Virus record (IMG/VR): IMGVR_UViG_3300044534_000090
Direction: 5' to 3' (one strand)
DNA: 64,000 nucleotides
From: a virus
The notes beneath the pieces are model-generated. The model was not told the origin of the DNA. It did not search any database and saw only the letters and a program-made list of their open reading frames with translations. The translations under genes were made by a program, and so were the position numbers. Positions 41,672-58,411 of the stretch are shown one piece after another (the stretch's first letter is position 1; every line of letters begins with the position of its first letter).

Positions 41672-42985
41672 ATGGGAAACCCGGTCCTTGAGCGGCTGCT
41701 CAATCAGCGCTCCGAGCAGGAGGAGTTCATCTCCCAGCTGCTCGACAAGGCCAATGAGGAAGACCGCGACCTGGTCGACGCCGAGCTGAAGAACGTCGAG
41801 AGCGCCCGTCAGCGGATGGCGGAGATTGACGAGCAGGTCAAGCCGCTGGAGGCGTTCGAGGAGACTCGCGCCGCCCATCAGGTTCGCAAGCCGGCCGCGC
41901 AGGCCAGGCAGCCGCGTGGCGATGGTGAGCAGCGCAGGCTGTCCATCGAGCCCCGCGAGCAGGCCTACAAGACTCCCGGCCAGTTCATCACCGACTACAT
42001 TCGGGCGGTCGGCTACGCCGGCGCCCAGGTCGCCCCATCCCCGGATGCGCAGCAGCGCGTCTCGGCCGCGCTAGGACGTGATGTGATGGCCCTGCAGCGT
42101 GCCGTCAACGATGTGGGCGCCGGTGAGCATCAGACCACCGCCGATACCCCTGGGCTTCTGCCGTCCTCGATCGTCGGTGAGATCCTCAATGATCTGGATG
42201 GGGCCCGCCCGTTCGTGTCCTCGATCGGGGCGAAGCCGCTGGCCGGTATCGCCGGGAAGAGTTTCGAGCGGCCGCACATCACCGGTCACACGAAGACTGC
42301 CGAGCAGACCGCCGAGAAGGGTGAGCTGATCTCTTCGGATCTGAAGATCGAGGGTGTCCCGTTCACGAAGCACACCTTCGGCGGGTTCGTGAACATCTCC
42401 AGGCAGGACATCGACTGGACCTCGCCCAGTGCGTGGGATTCGGTGATCGGTGACCTGCAGGTCATCTATGGCACCGATACCGAGGATTGGGCTGCTGGCC
42501 AGTTCTCGACTGCTGTCACGCAGTCGGAGACGGTGGCCGCCGACGATCTGGCCGGATGGGTCAAGGGCCTGTACAGCGCAGCTGTGAAGGCCATGACTGG
42601 CAACGGCACCAAGCGTGCCTCCTCGCTGCGTCTGGTCAACACGATCTGGACGTCGGTGGACATGTGGGCCTCGCTGGGGACTCTCCTGACCATGGCGAAC
42701 GTCACTGCCGCCACCAACGAGAACCCGGGCGCTGCCCGCGTCTCTGGGTTCGAGGGGTCGATCCTCGATATCCCCCGCATCATGGTTCCCGGACTTCCTG
42801 CCGGCACCGTGATCCTCGGACGCTCGAACCTGGCCGAGTTCTACGAAGAGAGGATCGGCTTGCTGCAGGCGATCGAGCCGAAGGTCTTCGGGATCGGGGT
42901 CTCCTATGGCGGCTACGCGGCCACCGGGGTCCTCGACGCATCGGCGTTCTGCAAGATGTCCGTCGCTGGGACTGCCGGCGGCTGA
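41672..42985 (+). CDS. Major capsid protein (HK97 fold with delta domain), phage Y
   Basis: RBS GGAGAGG; coiled-coil N-terminus; GLLPSSIVGEI, EKGE, GGFVNISRQ. Confidence 0.9.
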   Translation: MGNPVLERLLNQRSEQEEFISQLLDKANEEDRDLVDAELKNVESARQRMAEIDEQVKPLEAFEETRAAHQVRKPAAQARQPRGDGEQRRLSIEPREQAYKTPGQFITDYIRAVGYAGAQVAPSPDAQQRVSAALGRDVMALQRAVNDVGAGEHQTTADTPGLLPSSIVGEILNDLDGARPFVSSIGAKPLAGIAGKSFERPHITGHTKTAEQTAEKGELISSDLKIEGVPFTKHTFGGFVNISRQDIDWTSPSAWDSVIGDLQVIYGTDTEDWAAGQFSTAVTQSETVAADDLAGWVKGLYSAAVKAMTGNGTKRASSLRLVNTIWTSVDMWASLGTLLTMANVTAATNENPGAARVSGFEGSILDIPRIMVPGLPAGTVILGRSNLAEFYEERIGLLQAIEPKVFGIGVSYGGYAATGVLDASAFCKMSVAGTAGG

Positions 42986-51438: not shown

Positions 51439-52118
51439 GCACGGTGAGGAGCGCATCTGTGGTGTCGGGGCCGTCTGCTGGTCTGCTGACCGTCTCGATT
51501 CTGGGCGAGCAGGCGACAAGGAAGGTCATTGCGACGTCGGCGGTGGCGGGGGTGGCTTCCGGCGCGCAGGTGCTGGTGGTCTCTGACTCGGGGCAGTCGT
51601 GGGCCGTGTCTGTGACGTCCACTGCCTCGACTCCGACTCCTGCGCCGAGTGGCGACTCGTTGCCAGTGGCCGGCCCCGAGACGATGGGGTCGGTGTCGGG
51701 GGTTGAGGTGCTGGTGCCGTCGTGGTCTGGCACGTGGCAGGACGGTGGCTGGCGTGAGGACACGCAGGACGCCATACAGGGTGACGGGGTGACTGGTGCG
51801 GTCTTCTGGACCGGGATGGCGCTGTTCGGACAGATCACATCGGCTTCGGTGATGTTGAACCGACCCGGAGGTGGGTCTCCGGCCGCCCCGACGATCGGGC
51901 TGCTGGCCGGTGCACGGGATCCTGGCGCGTTCCCTGCGGTCCTCGCGACCGCGACGGGGCCTCCCCTCACAGGTGGGGCGCCAGTCCAGTGGAGGGCCCC
52001 GGTCGACTGGCTGCCCAGGTTCCAGTCCGGTGAGGCCGGCGGGATCGGACTCGTCGGAAACGAGCCCTGCACGATCGACGGACCAGCGGCCGCCGCCGCA
52101 ATCACATGGGAGGAATGA
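51435..52118 (+). CDS. Minor tail protein
   Basis: Position; W..TW...GWR..T..AIQG. Confidence 0.6.
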   Translation: MSTVRSASVVSGPSAGLLTVSILGEQATRKVIATSAVAGVASGAQVLVVSDSGQSWAVSVTSTASTPTPAPSGDSLPVAGPETMGSVSGVEVLVPSWSGTWQDGGWREDTQDAIQGDGVTGAVFWTGMALFGQITSASVMLNRPGGGSPAAPTIGLLAGARDPGAFPAVLATATGPPLTGGAPVQWRAPVDWLPRFQSGEAGGIGLVGNEPCTIDGPAAAAAITWEE

Positions 52119-52119
52119 C

Positions 52120-52503
52120 ATGGCCATCGTCAGAAGCTTCACGAAGGACGACACGTCACAGATCTGGCTGCTGCTGAACGAGCTGGGGTCTGCGATCAAC
52201 ACGTTCGGCAGCCTGAGATTCGGGAACTGGGCGATCGAACCGCGACACGAGTCGATCTATCCGGGATCCACAGCAGGCGCGTCCTACACCCAGCAGGTCG
52301 CGTTCACGACGACCTTCTCCGAGGTGCCGTTTCTGATCTTCGGCGGCCTGATCACCACGGCAGCTGGGACAGGAAAGGTGACTGTCAGGTGCTTCAACCC
52401 GACCGTCACGGGATGCACGGCGTGGGCCACGACCTATGACGGGTCGAGCCTTCCGAATCAGCGGATGCCCTACGACCTGCTGGTGGTCGGGAAGGTCGCG
52501 TGA
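52120..52503 (+). CDS. Tail fibre tip protein (H-lectin/gp53-like)
   Basis: QQVAFTTTFSEVP...TVTG motif. Confidence 0.5.
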   Translation: MAIVRSFTKDDTSQIWLLLNELGSAINTFGSLRFGNWAIEPRHESIYPGSTAGASYTQQVAFTTTFSEVPFLIFGGLITTAAGTGKVTVRCFNPTVTGCTAWATTYDGSSLPNQRMPYDLLVVGKVA

Positions 52504-53066
52504 TGGTCCCCCTGATCACTGAAATCGGTCTGGCCGCACTGATCACGGCCGCCGGCTCATCGATCGCCGCTCTGATCGGCTCGCTGGTGCAAGGCATGAA
52601 GACTCGCGCGGAGGTGGAGCAGATGCGCGGGAATGTGACCGCCGCGATGGAGACGGCCCAGCATGAACTCACCCACAATCACGGCTCGAGCATGAAGGAC
52701 GCGTCCACGCGGACGGAGGGGAAGGTGGACCGGCTGTCCGACGCGGTGGAGGCCAACACTGAGTTGACGCGTGGGGTGGTGGCCGAGCAGGACCGGCAGG
52801 CCACCCGTCTCCATGCGCTGGAGACCGGGCTGGGTGGGATCCGTGATGACGTGCGGCAGATCCACCGGTCCTCTGACTCTGAGCACGGCACCCTCCGGGA
52901 TGACATCAGTCAGATCCGTGATGATGTCCGGGCCATCCAGGGCCGGTGTCGCCCCCGCGACTCCCCCGCCTGTGGCGGCTGGGACTACCGCGACCATGAG
53001 ACCAGCGGTCAGCCCCCGATTTTCAGGGCACCCGGCAGGGACCATGACACCCAGGAGGACACATGA
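52500..53066 (+). CDS. Membrane protein of the lysis cassette
   Basis: TM plus coiled coil; HNHGSSMKDASTRTEGKVD. Confidence 0.6.
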   Translation: MMVPLITEIGLAALITAAGSSIAALIGSLVQGMKTRAEVEQMRGNVTAAMETAQHELTHNHGSSMKDASTRTEGKVDRLSDAVEANTELTRGVVAEQDRQATRLHALETGLGGIRDDVRQIHRSSDSEHGTLRDDISQIRDDVRAIQGRCRPRDSPACGGWDYRDHETSGQPPIFRAPGRDHDTQEDT

Positions 53067-53947
53067 GCAGAGCAGCGTGGTATCCGCCCGCCAACCAGCA
53101 GGCGCAGCGGTACGACAGCGTGTACAAGGGCTCCTCGATGAGCCCGAACTGTCTGGTGCTGCACACCACTGAAGGCCAGTCCTGGCCGGCATACAACGGC
53201 GGGGCGGTGGCGCCGCACCTGACAGCGCTCCCCGACTTCGCCAACAAGCGGCTGGTCTGGCGGCAGCATTTCCCGGTGACCATGTCGGCGCGCGCCCTGG
53301 TCAACGCCCCCGGCGGTGTGGAGACCAACACGGCGAACTGTATCCAGATCGAGTTGGTGGGAACGTCCGGGTGGGCAACCACCGCGAACAAGAACCGCGA
53401 CTACACCCTCGATTCCAAGTGGTGCTGGGCGACGAACGCCACTGATTGGATGCTCGCCGGAGTCGCCGACTTCATCAAGTGGTGCCACAGCGAGTGGGGA
53501 ATCCCTCTCAGCGCCCCGTATGCGTTCGACGACTGGGCCGGCAACCACTCGCACCGCATGTCCGCTTCGCAGTGGCGCTCCTTCGAGGGCGTCTGCGGCC
53601 ACTCCCACGTTCCCGAGAACGGACACACCGACCCTGGGGCCTTCCCCATCGCCGCCTGCCTCAAGTTGGCAGCCGGCGGAACCATCAATCAGGAGGATGA
53701 CGTGATCAGTGACAAGGACATTCAGAGGATCGCCGCGGCGGTCCACTCCCAGAAGATCGGGAGGACCGGCATCAGCTTCGGGGTGCTGGGTGAGAAGCTG
53801 CTCAAGGGGCAGATCACCACCGACGCTGCTGTCTCCGACTCCACCGCCGACCGGATCGCCCGCAAGGTCCATGGCGTCAAGCTCGGACGGAGCGAGGTCA
53901 CCATCGGGATGGTGCTGCAGAAGCTCGCCGGGAAGCTGGGGCTGTGA
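53063..53947 (+). CDS. Endolysin, Amidase_2
   Basis: VLHTTEG, IELVG, GVCGHSHVPENGHTDPG; homologous to 20496-21341. Confidence 0.9.
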   Translation: MSRAAWYPPANQQAQRYDSVYKGSSMSPNCLVLHTTEGQSWPAYNGGAVAPHLTALPDFANKRLVWRQHFPVTMSARALVNAPGGVETNTANCIQIELVGTSGWATTANKNRDYTLDSKWCWATNATDWMLAGVADFIKWCHSEWGIPLSAPYAFDDWAGNHSHRMSASQWRSFEGVCGHSHVPENGHTDPGAFPIAACLKLAAGGTINQEDDVISDKDIQRIAAAVHSQKIGRTGISFGVLGEKLLKGQITTDAAVSDSTADRIARKVHGVKLGRSEVTIGMVLQKLAGKLGL

Positions 53948-54420
53948 TGACTGCCACCGACGCTCTCGCCGTGATCGTCGCGGCTCTCGTCTCCACCACC
54001 GGCACCGCGGTCGTGGTGCGCCCCGGATGGTCGGCGAAGTCGAAGCGCCTCACCGCGCTCATCATCGCCCTGGTCCTCGGCATTCTGGCCGCCCTTATCG
54101 CCGGGCAGATCTCGGGTGTGCCTGGGTCGGTCACCGCCGTGGTGCAGCAGGTCGTCATCTCGGCTGCCGCAGTGGTGGCGGCCGCGCAGGGATTCCATCG
54201 GCAGATGGCCGGAGCCCTGGGTGTGCTGGAGTCAGCCACGTCACCGACCGTGATCGAGGGGGAGCTGCAGCCCGACGCGGCGCCTGACCCGGCAGCCCCG
54301 GAGCCCGACCCGGATCCGATCGTGGATGTCATCCCTGAGCCCGTCGACGTGTCCGCGCTGGATGATGTCGAGCCGGCCGAGGTGCCTTCCATCCCCGAGC
54401 ACGCCGCAGACCCTGAATGA
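53947..54420 (+). CDS. Holin
   Basis: MTATDALAVI shared with holin X; TM segments plus acidic tail. Confidence 0.75.
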   Translation: MTATDALAVIVAALVSTTGTAVVVRPGWSAKSKRLTALIIALVLGILAALIAGQISGVPGSVTAVVQQVVISAAAVVAAAQGFHRQMAGALGVLESATSPTVIEGELQPDAAPDPAAPEPDPDPIVDVIPEPVDVSALDDVEPAEVPSIPEHAADPE

Positions 54421-54773
54421 TGGCATTCATCGACTGGCGGAACCTCGCGGACGATGAGCTTGCACAGGTGGCTCTTGGCGCCGCGGCAGAGTTCCAGCGT
54501 CGGCAGACCATCGCGGACGGGCCCGCGAACGTGGACAGGATCTGTCGCGCGTTCGCGGCGGGGACCCTGAGCGTGGATCCCTGCACGATCGACGCCAGCG
54601 CCGGCTGCGAAGGCCGCCCGGAGTGGCGGGAACTGGGCACCGGGTGGCCGTCTGGGGCACGCGTCGCCCATGACGGGCACTGCTGGGTGGCGGTCAGCCC
54701 AGCCACCCAGGGAGAGCCTGGAGTCTCACCCATGTGGATCCAGGAAGACAGCAACCAAGGAGGAGCATCATGA
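54417..54773 (+). CDS. Protein with C-terminal CBM5/12-like carbohydrate-binding module
   Basis: WPSGARVAHDGHCWVA......EPG..W pattern. Confidence 0.55.
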   Translation: MMAFIDWRNLADDELAQVALGAAAEFQRRQTIADGPANVDRICRAFAAGTLSVDPCTIDASAGCEGRPEWRELGTGWPSGARVAHDGHCWVAVSPATQGEPGVSPMWIQEDSNQGGAS

Positions 54774-55149
54774 CCACCGTCGACCCGCCCGGTCTGCGAT
54801 AGGTGCTGGCACCAGCTCCCTGGCACTGGGCGCCACGGCCACGACCGCGGCGAAGGGAGACCACACCCACAGCTACAACGACCTGACCGACAAGCCCAGC
54901 ATCCCCTCGGCGCCGGCCGAGGAGCGCCTGGTGCCGACCGGAGGAACCCAGAATCAGATCCTCAAGGTCGGCTCGGACGGGAAGCCGGCGTGGGGGGCGG
55001 ATGCGAATACGCAGCCGCCCACCCTGTCGGCGGCCGACGTGCAGGCCGGGACGGCGACCATCCCCTCCTCGATCACCGCGAAGATTCTGGCGGATGAGAT
55101 CGACCGGCGCGTGGCGGCCGCGATCGCAGCTCTCCCCTCCGGAGGCTGA
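54770..55149 (+). pseudogene. Frameshifted structural-accessory gene (1-nt deficit near codon 6)
   Basis: RBS GGAGGAG and coupled ATG 54770 read MTTVDPPGLR-stop; the -1 frame continues ARSAIGAGTSSLALGATATTAAKGDHTH. Confidence 0.55.
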
Positions 55150-55163
55150 TCCTCGGGTACGAA

Positions 55164-55198
55164 GAAGCCCCCTCCACCATCACGGTGGAGGGGGCTTC
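55164..55198. terminator. Bidirectional intrinsic terminator
   Basis: GAAGCCCCCTCCACC-ATCAC-GGTGGAGGGGGCTTC. Confidence 0.85.
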
Positions 55199-55219
55199 GT
55201 GCGTCCGGGCCAGTGTCAG

Positions 55220-55347
55220 CGGGCCACCCCCGGGAAGCCGGGGAGGACAGCACATCACACAAAGTAAAACGGCTCACCCCCGCGCGGGCGGGGACTACAG
55301 TCGACCGATTCACAACCTCGGGTGACCCCCGCGTGAGCGGGGACATG
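55220..55347 (-). CRISPR. Type I-E CRISPR mini-array: 3 degenerate 29-nt repeats, spacers of 20 and 21 nt, no cas operon
   Basis: Minus repeats CATGT-CCCCGC-TCAC-GCGGGG-GTCACCCG (55347-55319), GTAGT-CCCCGC-CCGC-GCGGGG-GTGAGCCG (55298-55270), GTCCT-CCCCGG-CTTC-CCGGGG-GTGGCCCG (55248-55220). Confidence 0.85.
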
Positions 55348-55359
55348 TCCCTGACGGTA

Positions 55360-56058
55360 TCACTTGCGGCGGATCTTGGAGACCATCATCTCCGAGATCC
55401 CGAGCGCCCGGGCGAGCCGCCTCCCGGTCCAGTCAGGCCTCTCGGCCACCAGTGCAGCCCTCTCGGCGACCAGCGCGTCGAGCTGGCGCTGCGCGTCGGT
55501 GATCCTGGCGGCCACGTCACGCAGGGGCGCCTCGGCCGCCCGCGCCTCCTCGGTCTGCCGCTGCTGCTCCGCCTCCCACTCGGCCTCCTCTGCGCTGGCC
55601 TCCTCGACGGCGCGGCGCAGATCCGACAGTGAGGCTACGCGACGCCACCGCCGCTCCTGGTCCCCGTGATGAGACCGGACGGAGACGGGCCCGCCCTGCC
55701 ACTCCCACTCGCCGACCACGTACATGGGCGGCCGGTAGTCGGAGATGATCACCCGGCCGTCATCCCACACGCGGCCGGCGCTCAGCCATCCGCCGGCGAT
55801 CCACTCGCACCACACCTCGGTAGGCACCTCGTCACGGTCGGCTGGGTCCAGCTCCTCGATGGTGACGCCGAGGTCCAGCACGTCGCGGTCGCCGGATCCT
55901 CCCGGCAGGGCCTCGACGGCCTCTGCGACGCCCGGCTCCGAGGTGTCGCACCACTCGCGCGCTATGGCCATCAGCTCGGCGTCATCGTGCGGAGTAGCCC
56001 ACTCGCCCGAGTAGGTGTCGCGCATCAGTACCACGTGGCGCTCGTCGTAGGTGTACAT
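55360..56058 (-). CDS. Acidic N-terminal domain fused to C-terminal Aca-like HTH
   Basis: 23 D/E vs 5 R and 0 K in the first 86 aa; C-terminal WTGRRLARALGISEMMVSKIRRK. Confidence 0.75.
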   Translation of the reverse strand: MYTYDERHVVLMRDTYSGEWATPHDDAELMAIAREWCDTSEPGVAEAVEALPGGSGDRDVLDLGVTIEELDPADRDEVPTEVWCEWIAGGWLSAGRVWDDGRVIISDYRPPMYVVGEWEWQGGPVSVRSHHGDQERRWRRVASLSDLRRAVEEASAEEAEWEAEQQRQTEEARAAEAPLRDVAARITDAQRQLDALVAERAALVAERPDWTGRRLARALGISEMMVSKIRRK

Positions 56059-56112
56059 GTCATGTCCTCTCAGTGTGGGGGCCGGATGCCCAGCCCCCGG
56101 GTGGTTGGTGGG

Positions 56113-56412
56113 TCAGAGGGCCTTGCGGACGCGGGCGGCGATCTCGTCGGCGGTGATCTCCCGCTCGGCCTTCGATGGCAGGTAGTCCACGTGGATGGTG
56201 TCGGCGTCATCGAGCCAGACCTTCGCGGAGCGGATCGCCCCGGCGCGGCTGTTGGAGATCTCACGGCCGTCGAGCGTGGCCCAGCGGATGTTCCCGGTGC
56301 CGTACAGCTCGACGTCGAGGCCGACGATGTCGGTCCAGTTGTTGATGTAGCGGCGATGCTGGCCGGTGCGGCTGGTCCAGTCGTTGATGTCGGGGGTGAT
56401 GGTGTCGTTCAT
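56113..56412 (-). CDS. Hypothetical protein (candidate Acr)
   Basis: RBS AAGGAG; 99 aa; first gene of the leftward operon. Confidence 0.7.
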   Translation of the reverse strand: MNDTITPDINDWTSRTGQHRRYINNWTDIVGLDVELYGTGNIRWATLDGREISNSRAGAIRSAKVWLDDADTIHVDYLPSKAEREITADEIAARVRKAL

Positions 56413-56435
56413 TTCGTGCTCCTTGGGTGGTAGGT

Positions 56436-56481
56436 CCCGCTGACATGAAAACCATAAACCCAGGTGTAGATCAGGTCTATA
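56436..56481 (-). promoter_or_regulatory. Leftward promoter of the accessory operon
   Basis: Minus TAGACC-17 bp-TATGGT followed by TTTCATGTCAGCGGGA, matching the TGTCAACGGG leader of the X promoters. Confidence 0.6.
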
Positions 56482-56523
56482 TATCGCTCACTCCGAGTGA
56501 GCGTTTCGGGGTCGAGCCCCCGC

Positions 56524-56753
56524 CCCGTGTCGCTCTGGTGTCGCTGCGAGGCTGGACATGGCACGACACCACTGGACATGACTGGACGTCACGACAGCGA
56601 CAGGAATGGCGCAGATCCACGCTACACCCCTAGTGGGAGCTGGTTTGAGGACGGATTCGGGCAACAACTCATGGTTGCCATCCCCTCGTCATGTCCCCTA
56701 GTCAGAGGCAACTTTCCGGTCCATCATCGGCCCGTGTCGCTCAGGTGTCGCTG
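56524..56753. mobile_element. attP-like region of phage Y
   Basis: 23-nt paired arm repeats CCCGTGTCGCTCWGGTGTCGCTG at 56524-56546 and 56731-56753; CTGGAC repeats 56552-56590; inverted core candidate GGCAAC-AACTCATG-GTTGCC 56660-56679. Confidence 0.7.
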
Positions 56754-57871
56754 AGAGCACCGGCGATCTCATCCCCCACAGCCGCCATCGACGCATCATC
56801 CGAGGGCCAGAGATGCGAGTAGACCCGCAGCGTCTCCGTCACGTCGGCGTGCCCCAGACGGTCAGCCACCGCCCTGGGGGACATGCCCGCGTGGATCAGC
56901 GCCGAGGCGTGGAAGTGCCTCAAATCGTGCCAGCCTGAGCGCGGCCACAACCCCATGCCGTCGACGGCACGATGCCAGATCCCCACCATGGGCGACGTCG
57001 ACAGCGCCCCGTTCGCCCGGGATGTCCACACCAGCCCGGACACCCCGTCACCCCACCGGCTCCGATGATCCGCCAGCACCTCGAGCGCGGCGGGCCCCAG
57101 GGAGACGGTCCGATTCGACCTCGGCGTCTTCGGCGGCCCCCACTTCGGATCGTGCGCACTCCCCTGCCTCAGCTGCCGATCCACCCGCAGCCCACCAGCC
57201 TGCACATGATCCCAGGTGAGCCCCCACAGTTCCGCCGGACGCAGCCCCGACGCCGCCGCGACGATCACCAGAGAGCGCAGCCGCTCCGGCACCCGCGAGA
57301 CGATCGTCGCCACCTGCCCGGCGGTGAGCACCCGCGTCTTCCCAGGAGTCAGTCTCGGCAGCCTCACCCCGACGCACGGGTCACGCTCGATCACCCCGTC
57401 GGCCACCGCCTGAGACATGGCGCCCCGCAGGAACGGCCAGCGCGCCTTCACGGTCGCCGGGGCGAACTGCTCCGCCCATCCGTTGACCGCGTCCTGGATG
57501 CGCTGGCGGGTGAGCGACTGCACCGACTCCCCCGCCAACGCCGGAATGATCACCTGGTCAATGGCCGTGGCGGCGTGGCGGCGCGTCGACGCAGACCAGT
57601 GCAGCTGACCGGCCGCCCAGTCGTGCAGCCAGCGGTCGAGTGGCACCGGACCCGACGGCGCGGTCCTGCCGTCCAGCTCACGGATGACCTTCTCCGCCTC
57701 ATCCTTGCTGGCACACGCCCTGGCCTGCCGCCGCCCCGCGGCATCGGTCCAGACAGCCTGCCAGCGCTTCCCGCGACCCCACCTGGCATTGTGGATCCGC
57801 TTCGGACGGGCGGCAGGATCCCGATCGAGCTCAGGATTCTGGTCAGTCCAGCGATCGCGGATGTAGGCCAT
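56741..57871 (-). CDS. int: Tyrosine integrase, phage Y
   Basis: GLRPAEL, HDLRHFHAS, LGHA...TLRVY; RBS GGAGG. Confidence 0.95.
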   Translation of the reverse strand: MAYIRDRWTDQNPELDRDPAARPKRIHNARWGRGKRWQAVWTDAAGRRQARACASKDEAEKVIRELDGRTAPSGPVPLDRWLHDWAAGQLHWSASTRRHAATAIDQVIIPALAGESVQSLTRQRIQDAVNGWAEQFAPATVKARWPFLRGAMSQAVADGVIERDPCVGVRLPRLTPGKTRVLTAGQVATIVSRVPERLRSLVIVAAASGLRPAELWGLTWDHVQAGGLRVDRQLRQGSAHDPKWGPPKTPRSNRTVSLGPAALEVLADHRSRWGDGVSGLVWTSRANGALSTSPMVGIWHRAVDGMGLWPRSGWHDLRHFHASALIHAGMSPRAVADRLGHADVTETLRVYSHLWPSDDASMAAVGDEIAGALSDT

Positions 57872-57888
57872 CACACCTCCAATCACAC

Positions 57889-57919
57889 GGCCCCTCGCAG
57901 CTCAGCACTGCGAGGGGCC
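57889..57919. terminator. Hairpin terminator upstream of int
   Basis: GGCCCCTCGCAG-loop-CTGCGAGGGGCC. Confidence 0.65.
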
Positions 57920-57943
57920 GTTCTTGTGCGTCCCAAGATCGTT

Positions 57944-58411
57944 CTACTTGATGGAGGTCGCGTCGCAGGACGCCGACGCCATGTTCCCAGACCCCGAGTT
58001 CTTCGACTGAGACTTGCCGTCCACTAGGACCTCGCAGGACACCTTGGTGGCCCCGTCCATGTCTCCCGTCACGGTGAGGGAGACGCCGTCCCACCCGGTG
58101 ATGGTCTGATCCTTGGTCCAGTCCTTCGAAATGTCCTCGGTCGATGTGCCAGACGACGCGCCGTAGGTGATGTTCGCCTTGCCATTCGTCGTGACCTTGT
58201 ACGTCACCTTATGCTGCGCCGAGGTGGCCGAGTCCACAGCATTCACGGCGTCATTAGCGCCCTTCGCCATGCACGACACGGCGGCAATGACCACGACGAT
58301 GATGACCACCACGGCGATGATCGCAGTCCAGAGGCAGCCGTGCTTCTTCTTCGGCGGCTGCTGGGGCTGCTGGTATCCGGGCGCAGGCTGCCCAGGGTTC
58401 TGGGAGGACAT
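57944..58411 (-). CDS. MmpS-like membrane/exported protein (possible superinfection exclusion)
   Basis: Q/P N-terminus, KKKHG, TM helix, VTYKVT...CEVLVDGK...ASC. Confidence 0.7.
   Translation of the reverse strand: MSSQNPGQPAPGYQQPQQPPKKKHGCLWTAIIAVVVIIVVVIAAVSCMAKGANDAVNAVDSATSAQHKVTYKVTTNGKANITYGASSGTSTEDISKDWTKDQTITGWDGVSLTVTGDMDGATKVSCEVLVDGKSQSKNSGSGNMASASCDATSIK

Follow-up and report, generated by a model that had tools for sequence, protein, structure and literature searches.

What is the function of the two-gene operon, running leftward, that separates the integrase gene of phage Y from its lysis genes, and could it serve to counter the CRISPR-Cas system of the phage host? The window analyzed here, a 64,000-nucleotide stretch of DNA from the IMG/VR virus record IMGVR_UViG_3300044534_000090, carries phage Y, a temperate siphophage and 65% GC actinophage, and the sequencing runs in which this DNA is found are sludge and digester metagenomes. 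An earlier note, made from the nucleotide sequence alone, had described the locus as a candidate acr-aca operon in which protein and RNA anti-CRISPRs share one autoregulated transcript. To our knowledge, anti-CRISPRs against the type I-E systems of actinobacteria are scarce, and no example has been described for Micropruina, a genus of sludge bacteria.

Phage Y probably infects a Micropruina, or another of the Propionibacteriaceae related to it, with a type I-E CRISPR-Cas system. When the spacers of 1,187 I-E array units were compared with the window, the only notable match was that of a spacer from the I-E array of Micropruina sp. 5N270 (locus L119), in which 27 of 33 nucleotides, among them 24 of 25 contiguous positions, correspond to a phage Y capsid-region gene (42395 to 42427). 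The same spacer set gave no match to the related phage loci, and the 5N270 match, being the only spacer-based clue to the host, is best regarded as a hint.

The operon and its neighboring genes are arranged as follows:

53063-53947, amidase gene of the phage Y lysis cassette
53944-54420, holin gene of the phage Y lysis cassette
55360-56058, minus strand, gene 2 of the operon, encoding a protein of 232 aa
56113-56412, minus strand, gene 1 of the operon, encoding a protein of 99 aa, the swappable cargo position and a candidate effector
56741-57886, integrase gene of phage Y

The two leftward open reading frames are those anticipated by the earlier note, the 99-aa gene preceding the 232-aa gene, and GC3 values of 0.95 (gene 1) and 0.89 (gene 2) indicate that both are coding. 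The interval that separates the promoter of the operon from the integrase gene holds a 30-nt direct repeat (56521 to 56550 and 56728 to 56757; 90% identical) and a 20-nt tandem pair (56552 to 56591), which probably represent integrase arm-type sites of attP. A megablast comparison of positions 52000 to 58000 with GenBank phages and an Rfam search of positions 54000 to 58000 each returned no match.

Homologues of the 232-aa protein were recovered as 14 protein clusters sharing 51 to 100% identity, none of which carries a Pfam domain according to a word-based search. The family is represented by one contig in IMG/VR and by one more locus in JGI metagenomes; it was absent from 185,579 species genomes, and a tblastn search of the phage database with the 232-aa protein gave no match. 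Every homologue occupies the slot between lysis genes and an integrase or att site, with a single small gene ahead of it that belongs to one of three families:

99 aa, in the window and in loci L001 to L003 and L007
131 to 133 aa, in loci L004 to L006 and L008 to L010
97 aa, in locus L152 (643-936), an acidic product (pI 4.3; GC3 0.88) unrelated to the other two

These three unrelated gene-1 families are swapped between a common promoter and 5′ untranslated region (UTR) on one side and a common inter-gene hairpin on the other; even for the 97-aa gene of L152, the promoter, the 5′ UTR and the downstream hairpin match those of the window. The hairpin itself is the following element:

56077-56098, minus strand, inter-gene hairpin with a 9-bp GC stem and a 4-nt loop, lacking a U-tract

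It was found in the window and in loci L007, L004, L006, L008 and L152, with stems that differ in sequence yet pair, and the sequence which flanks it is conserved whichever gene 1 is present. None of the gene-1 products (99, 131 to 133 and 97 aa) belongs to an annotated family or matches a solved Acr structure. The 131-aa family equals the 232-aa family in its small size and may do no more than co-evolve with it, a point that counts against an anti-CRISPR reading of the locus.

The same exchange of small genes bears on the view that the operon is a toxin-antitoxin or abortive infection module, in which gene 1 would be the toxin and the 232-aa protein an MqsA/HigA-like antitoxin, its N-terminal domain binding the toxin and its C-terminal helix-turn-helix (HTH) the promoter. 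Gene order and the C-terminal position of the HTH are indeed reminiscent of mqsRA and higBA, and weak matches to HipB-type HTH domains (E 0.27 to 0.6) were obtained. However, a toxin-binding domain would be expected to change along with its toxin, whereas three unrelated gene-1 families are here paired with one 232-aa family at about 74 to 85% identity (83 to 85% in the 99-aa locus L007 and the 131-aa locus L006, and approximately 74% in L004 and in the 97-aa locus). No toxin family was matched in Pfam, PHROGs or PADLOC, and neither the co-changing gene pair nor the toxin fold that characterize type II toxin-antitoxin systems was found. Given that a single 232-aa family serves as partner to all three gene-1 families, we consider a toxin-antitoxin function very unlikely.

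The product of gene 2 was modeled with AlphaFold from the family alignment (pLDDT 86), which yielded a protein of three parts:

Residues 1 to 142 (55633-56058, minus strand), acidic N-terminal alpha/beta domain
Residues 144 to 206 (minus strand), long helix
Residues 191 to 232 (55363-55488, minus strand), terminal HTH, a three-helix unit

The charge count reported in the earlier note is exact, residues 1 to 86 containing 23 D/E and 5 R, along with no K, and the predicted pI is 4.6 for the whole protein and 4.2 for residues 1 to 135. Acidic proteins are nevertheless common in high-GC actinophages, and since phage Y is a 65% GC actinophage, the acidic composition of the protein is weak evidence of function; the suggestion of an acidic DNA mimic is unsupported. 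The C-terminal HTH that the note had recognized is borne out by structure, as residues 191 to 232 superpose on the DeoR DNA-binding domain (Z 5.6, rmsd 1.2 Å over 42 residues), with SorC, KorB, resolvase and sigma region 4 as the next fold matches close behind. Sequence profiles were below threshold, HTH_23 being detected in 6 of the 14 family members (E 0.02 for the 232-aa protein and 0.003 at best) and phrog_7061 matching the 232-aa protein with an E value of 0.005. A fold search with the full-length model matched the HTH only and returned nothing for the N-terminal domain. Profile searches against the PDB produced nothing but noise (for example, E 0.015 for an LXG fragment and E 0.009 for a glucanase), no informative match came from PADLOC or NCBIfam, and across Pfam, PHROGs, NCBIfam and PADLOC generic weak HTH matches were the most that was obtained.

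The 232-aa protein is predicted to form a homodimer. Its dimer model reached an ipSAE of 0.65, against 0.01 for the best control, with at least 96% contact agreement and a partner pLDDT of 88, a mark that 20 of 30 known homodimers attained, as did 1 of 23 proteins whose solved structure is a single chain. The predicted interface is an antiparallel pairing of residues 176 to 203, to which residues 214 to 221 contribute, and such a dimer would suit a palindromic site.

A DNA-binding protein of this kind (dimeric, as predicted), whose gene adjoins an integrase gene and repeated arm-like sites (56521 to 56550 and 56728 to 56757), might also be imagined to act as an excisionase, as a recombination directionality factor or as another accessory of integration. 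The locations of its homologues argue against such a role: in the integrated prophage of L004 the gene lies at the att end beside tRNA-Ala and host genes with no integrase in the 20-kb locus, and L008 likewise has no integrase nearby. Furthermore, the gene has its own promoter and an extra domain of 140 residues, and its HTH is of the DeoR/resolvase/sigma-4 type as opposed to the winged-helix Xis type, leaving a function in excision or integration highly improbable.

Sequence change within the 232-aa protein is unevenly distributed. Comparison of the window with L007 revealed 18 amino-acid-changing versus 9 silent codon differences in residues 1 to 60, and 3 versus 9 in residues 101 to 232. 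The changes are thus concentrated in residues 1 to 60 (55878 to 56058), the two loci being otherwise 93% identical and their 99-aa genes 100% identical. A fast-changing segment of this kind fits a surface engaged in an arms race, but could also be explained by relaxed constraint or recombination.

If the HTH regulates its own operon, where would it bind? The region upstream of gene 1 contains the following elements:

56485-56503, O1, a 19-bp palindrome (CGCTCA-N7-TGAGCG) directly upstream of the -35 hexamer, candidate operator
56451-56479, minus strand, putative promoter, its hexamer positions kept across loci
Inside the -35/-10 spacer, O2, a second inverted repeat, lineage-specific
56413-56445, minus strand, 5′ UTR with the invariant motif UGUCAGCGGGA, whose 10-nt core lies at 56436-56445
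56421-56426, minus strand, Shine-Dalgarno sequence AAGGAG within the 5′ UTR

The leftward promoter claimed in the earlier note is supported by conservation across six loci, from which a -35 hexamer (TAGACC, 56474 to 56479), a 17-nt spacer and a -10 hexamer (TATGGT, 56451 to 56456) were assigned, although a scan for generic E. coli-type sigma-70 promoters called none at the operon start. All gene-1 types display the same upstream order, namely GAAACGCTCA-N7-TGAGCG, an A/T-rich stretch, TAGAC(A/C), 17 nt and TAnnGT, which in every case is followed by a 5′ UTR starting with CATGTCAGCGGGA and then by the Shine-Dalgarno sequence. Scans with the operator, 5′ UTR and psiS1 (see below) motifs retrieved the known IMG/VR contig and one chance match, L153, and nothing else.

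The half-sites of O1 are invariant in the six aligned loci and are also present in L152, while its central 7 nt vary; an exact copy occurs once in the 64-kb window. The palindrome extends partly outside the interval 56436 to 56490, which had earlier been put forward as the HTH target. O2 takes the form ACC-N2-GGT in the window lineage and ATTACC-N4-GGTAAT in the L008/L010 lineage, and the predicted recognition helix differs likewise (SEMMVSKIRR versus SAKQVSLIRNR). Because variation in O2 tracks the HTH recognition helix, O2 represents a better candidate than O1 for the operator of the 232-aa protein itself, an assignment which this sequence correlation suggests.

Downstream of gene 2, and on its strand, lies the repeat array that the earlier note had placed behind the 232-aa gene, followed by a terminator:

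55220-55347, minus strand, three I-E repeat-like units of 29 nt each, starting 12 nt after the gene 2 stop codon
55319-55347, minus strand, psiR1, first repeat-like unit
55299-55318, minus strand, psiS1, spacer-like stretch of 20 nt
55270-55298, minus strand, psiR2, second repeat-like unit
55249-55269, minus strand, psiS2, spacer-like stretch of 21 nt
55220-55248, minus strand, psiR3, third repeat-like unit
55164-55198, terminator, a perfect 15-bp GC-rich hairpin shared with the convergent late gene

A pattern derived from psiR1 and psiR2 matches genuine I-E arrays with a 61-nt period. Over its central 25 nt, psiR2 is identical to array repeats of several Micropruina and Propionicimonas metagenome-assembled genomes, with 97% identity over as many as 29 to 30 nt, and I-E hairpins number four in the window against 0.06 expected by chance. 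As described for Racr RNAs, the units thus match a host-type repeat, that of Micropruina/Propionicimonas, and are located on a mobile element outside a CRISPR-Cas locus. Since cas6e is positioned upstream of the array in the Micropruina and Propionicimonas genomes and points the same way as the psiR pattern, the phage units are in sense orientation on the strand of the operon (minus).

The number of units behind the 232-aa gene varies, with three in the window, two each in L006 and L010, one in L004 and none in L008, where the stop codon is followed directly by a conserved GGACGCAC-AAG motif and the terminator. psiS1 is conserved in the window, L006 and L010. When psiS1 and psiS2 were compared with three Micropruina cas loci, the best matches covered 13 to 14 of 20 to 21 nt, which is chance level. 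The psiS1 stretch (55299 to 55318) loosely resembles the end of the Micropruina leader (TTGTATCGG...CTTGT; L147 6400 to 6435 and other array leaders), a similarity too weak to be called homology. The hairpin at 55164 to 55198 is the first and only terminator-like structure downstream of the operon, and escaped the pattern scan because it has no T-tract.

Two further observations concern the ends of this transcript and a second operon. The 5′ UTR motif UGUCAGCGGG (56436 to 56445) can pair without mismatch along 10 nt with CCCGCUGACA (55214 to 55223), which sits immediately after psiR3; the pair is also found in L004 and L006, and L008 and L010 keep the 5′ motif with no 3′ partner. This could reflect RNA pairing between transcript ends, inverted repeats at the ends of the cassette, or chance; in the bolder version of our proposal given below, it could also couple the cutting of the transcript by Cas6e to expression of the operon. 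In phage X (21850 to 21866 and 21983 to 22183), a leftward operon ends in a gene for a 66-aa helix-plus-HTH protein with one I-E repeat-like hairpin behind it, the fourth of those counted in the window. BLASTP detected no similarity between this 66-aa product and the C-terminus of the 232-aa protein, and the resemblance between the two operons is one of layout only.

The candidate effector encoded by gene 1 was called an orphan in the earlier note, a description that does not stand, as an exhaustive HMMER search identified 459 related clusters at E ≤ 0.001, 66 of them at E ≤ 1e-10, none of the 459 having an annotated family. Its structural model is very confident (pLDDT 96.7), and no solved fold in the PDB matches it (best VIA Z 2.9; nothing in Foldseek at E ≤ 0.001), while matches in BFVD were to uncharacterized phage proteins exclusively. 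Some relatives form the N-terminus of proteins of 190 to 816 aa without known domains. These longer carriers had no Pfam or PHROG domains with the exception of one RHH-like stretch, and in P0075, a Cna_B protein among them, all Pfam matches were to Cna_B, SpaA or anchor domains. A further relative is encoded within a run of small early genes in Rathayibacter phage NCPPB3778. Such a range of contexts is unusually broad for an Acr and counts against an anti-CRISPR reading. In support of that reading is a parallel pairing in locus L150 (339 to 1021), where a 95-aa relative (P0019) overlaps the start of a 132-aa protein which, like gene 2, is laid out as an N-terminal domain, a helix and a C-terminal HTH, here assigned to HTH_23 (E 6e-6). 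The L150 promoter contains a CCATCAT/ATGATGG inverted repeat over its -10 hexamer.

The genomic setting of these genes also accords with a more general explanation, according to which the operon would be an accessory cassette expressed during lysogeny under its own HTH regulator, its cargo acting in superinfection exclusion, prophage defense or host modulation and the repeats being carried as passengers in the 3′ UTR. Variable cargo beside an att site is also typical of lysogenic-conversion and defense genes. Location at the prophage end, beside attR and tRNA-Ala, is customary for genes of this kind, variable cargo also marks defense hot-spots, P0016 (the closest homologue of the 99-aa protein) is encoded downstream of a CI-like repressor and convergent with lysis genes, and L008 possesses both genes with no repeat unit. 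Against this stand the repeat mimics, which are found behind the 232-aa gene in four of the five types of locus and behind the analogous HTH gene of phage X, as well as the lack of any PADLOC match. In addition, racr and cracr genes have been reported to cluster with acr genes (PMC10651486; bioRxiv 10.1101/2024.10.29.618823), racr genes being enriched less than 1 kb from them (PMC10651486). We regard a lysogeny-expressed cassette with passenger repeats as a possible but rather doubtful account of the locus.

We propose instead, with roughly an even chance of being right, that the cassette is an anti-CRISPR, acr-aca-like operon with linked RNA anti-CRISPRs. As regards the claim of an acr-aca operon, the layout is upheld by a conserved HTH gene, a swapped gene 1, a palindromic promoter and sense-oriented repeat mimics, whereas neither protein resembles a known Acr or Aca in sequence or fold, as judged against Pfam, PHROGs, NCBIfam, PADLOC and solved structures. 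The chance-level matches of psiS1 and psiS2 and the negative outcome of the generic promoter and terminator scan also weigh against this reading. From the observed anatomy and conservation of the locus, its cargo swapping, the identity and orientation of its repeats and the HTH fold of its regulator, we infer co-transcription, autoregulation and an anti-CRISPR activity of either protein. Within the anti-CRISPR reading, autoregulation by the HTH is likelier than Acr activity of any one protein.

The cassette would then operate as an accessory anti-defense unit, in which a single leftward transcript would carry four elements, running from a small swappable effector gene through the hairpin, the 232-aa gene and zero to three CRISPR-repeat mimics to the terminator. 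The 232-aa protein is envisaged to dimerize via the end of its long helix. Both HTH motifs of the dimer would then sit on a palindrome within the promoter of the operon, whose expression the protein would restrain in the manner of an Aca. Cascade may also be a target of the conserved acidic N-terminal domain, as it is of AcrIF24, and the repeat mimics may serve as Racr- or Cracr-type RNAs that host Cas6e/Cascade would cut and bind. A bolder and more tentative version, which we deem unlikely though plausible, holds that the 232-aa family constitutes a new Acr-Aca fusion of actinobacterial type I-E, acting jointly with a crRNA-like array on the same transcript, and that all three gene-1 families are new anti-defense effectors.

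Were the anti-CRISPR reading to prove true, the 232-aa family could be used as a marker gene for further loci, three candidate effector families would be at hand, among them a widespread one whose fold has no match, and the link between an Acr-regulator fusion and a crRNA-like RNA would be broadened to one more CRISPR type and one more phylum. Should it fail, the locus would still illustrate cleanly how, in actinophages, cargo genes are exchanged with precision while the regulatory flanks around them are conserved.

By analogy, the closest counterpart of the 232-aa protein and its repeats appears to be AcrIF24, the Acr-Aca fusion of Pseudomonas prophages, together with the CracrIF RNA linked to it. 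[quoted passage not shown] Both proteins combine, in a single chain of approximately 230 aa, an N-terminal part that does not bind DNA with an HTH at the C-terminus; the homodimeric state of AcrIF24 is predicted for the 232-aa protein as well. Both are preceded by a small gene (acrIF23 there, the 99-aa gene here), have an inverted repeat in the promoter and directly adjoin RNA genes derived from CRISPR repeats. Unlike AcrIF24, the 232-aa protein belongs to a phage of another host phylum and would face a type I-E rather than a type I-F system, and its predicted dimer interface is an antiparallel helix pair; no sequence similarity between the two was detected, and the AcrIF24 structure is absent among the Foldseek and VIA matches listed.

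The likeness to classical acr-aca operons (Aca1 to Aca14) resides in the placement of variable small genes upstream of a conserved DNA-binding regulator, here with its HTH domain at residues 191 to 232, and in a conserved palindrome-containing promoter and 5′ UTR (PMC13551039). In contrast to a classical Aca, the 232-aa regulator is three to four times larger and has an extra conserved domain, and the operon contains no validated acr gene.

As in the Racr and Cracr systems, exemplified by the I-E Cracr array of a Salmonella prophage, phage-borne repeat-like units match the host repeat and form a two- to three-unit array beside candidate acr genes (PMC10651486; bioRxiv 10.1101/2024.10.29.618823). 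The spacer-like stretches are of 20 to 21 nt here and of 21 to 24 nt in I-E Cracr arrays (bioRxiv 10.1101/2024.10.29.618823). Unlike those of Cracr RNAs, psiS1 and psiS2 show no complementarity to a cas promoter or toxin gene in the three Micropruina cas loci, and psiS1 is conserved among related phages.

Finally, AcrIE10, AcrIIA1 and AcrIIA13 to AcrIIA15 (PMC13530269; PMC10901769) carry an N-terminal RHH or HTH domain, whereas the HTH of the nonhomologous 232-aa protein is located at the extreme C-terminus; what the 232-aa protein would share with them, if it acts as proposed here, is the combination of self-repression and Cas inhibition in one polypeptide.
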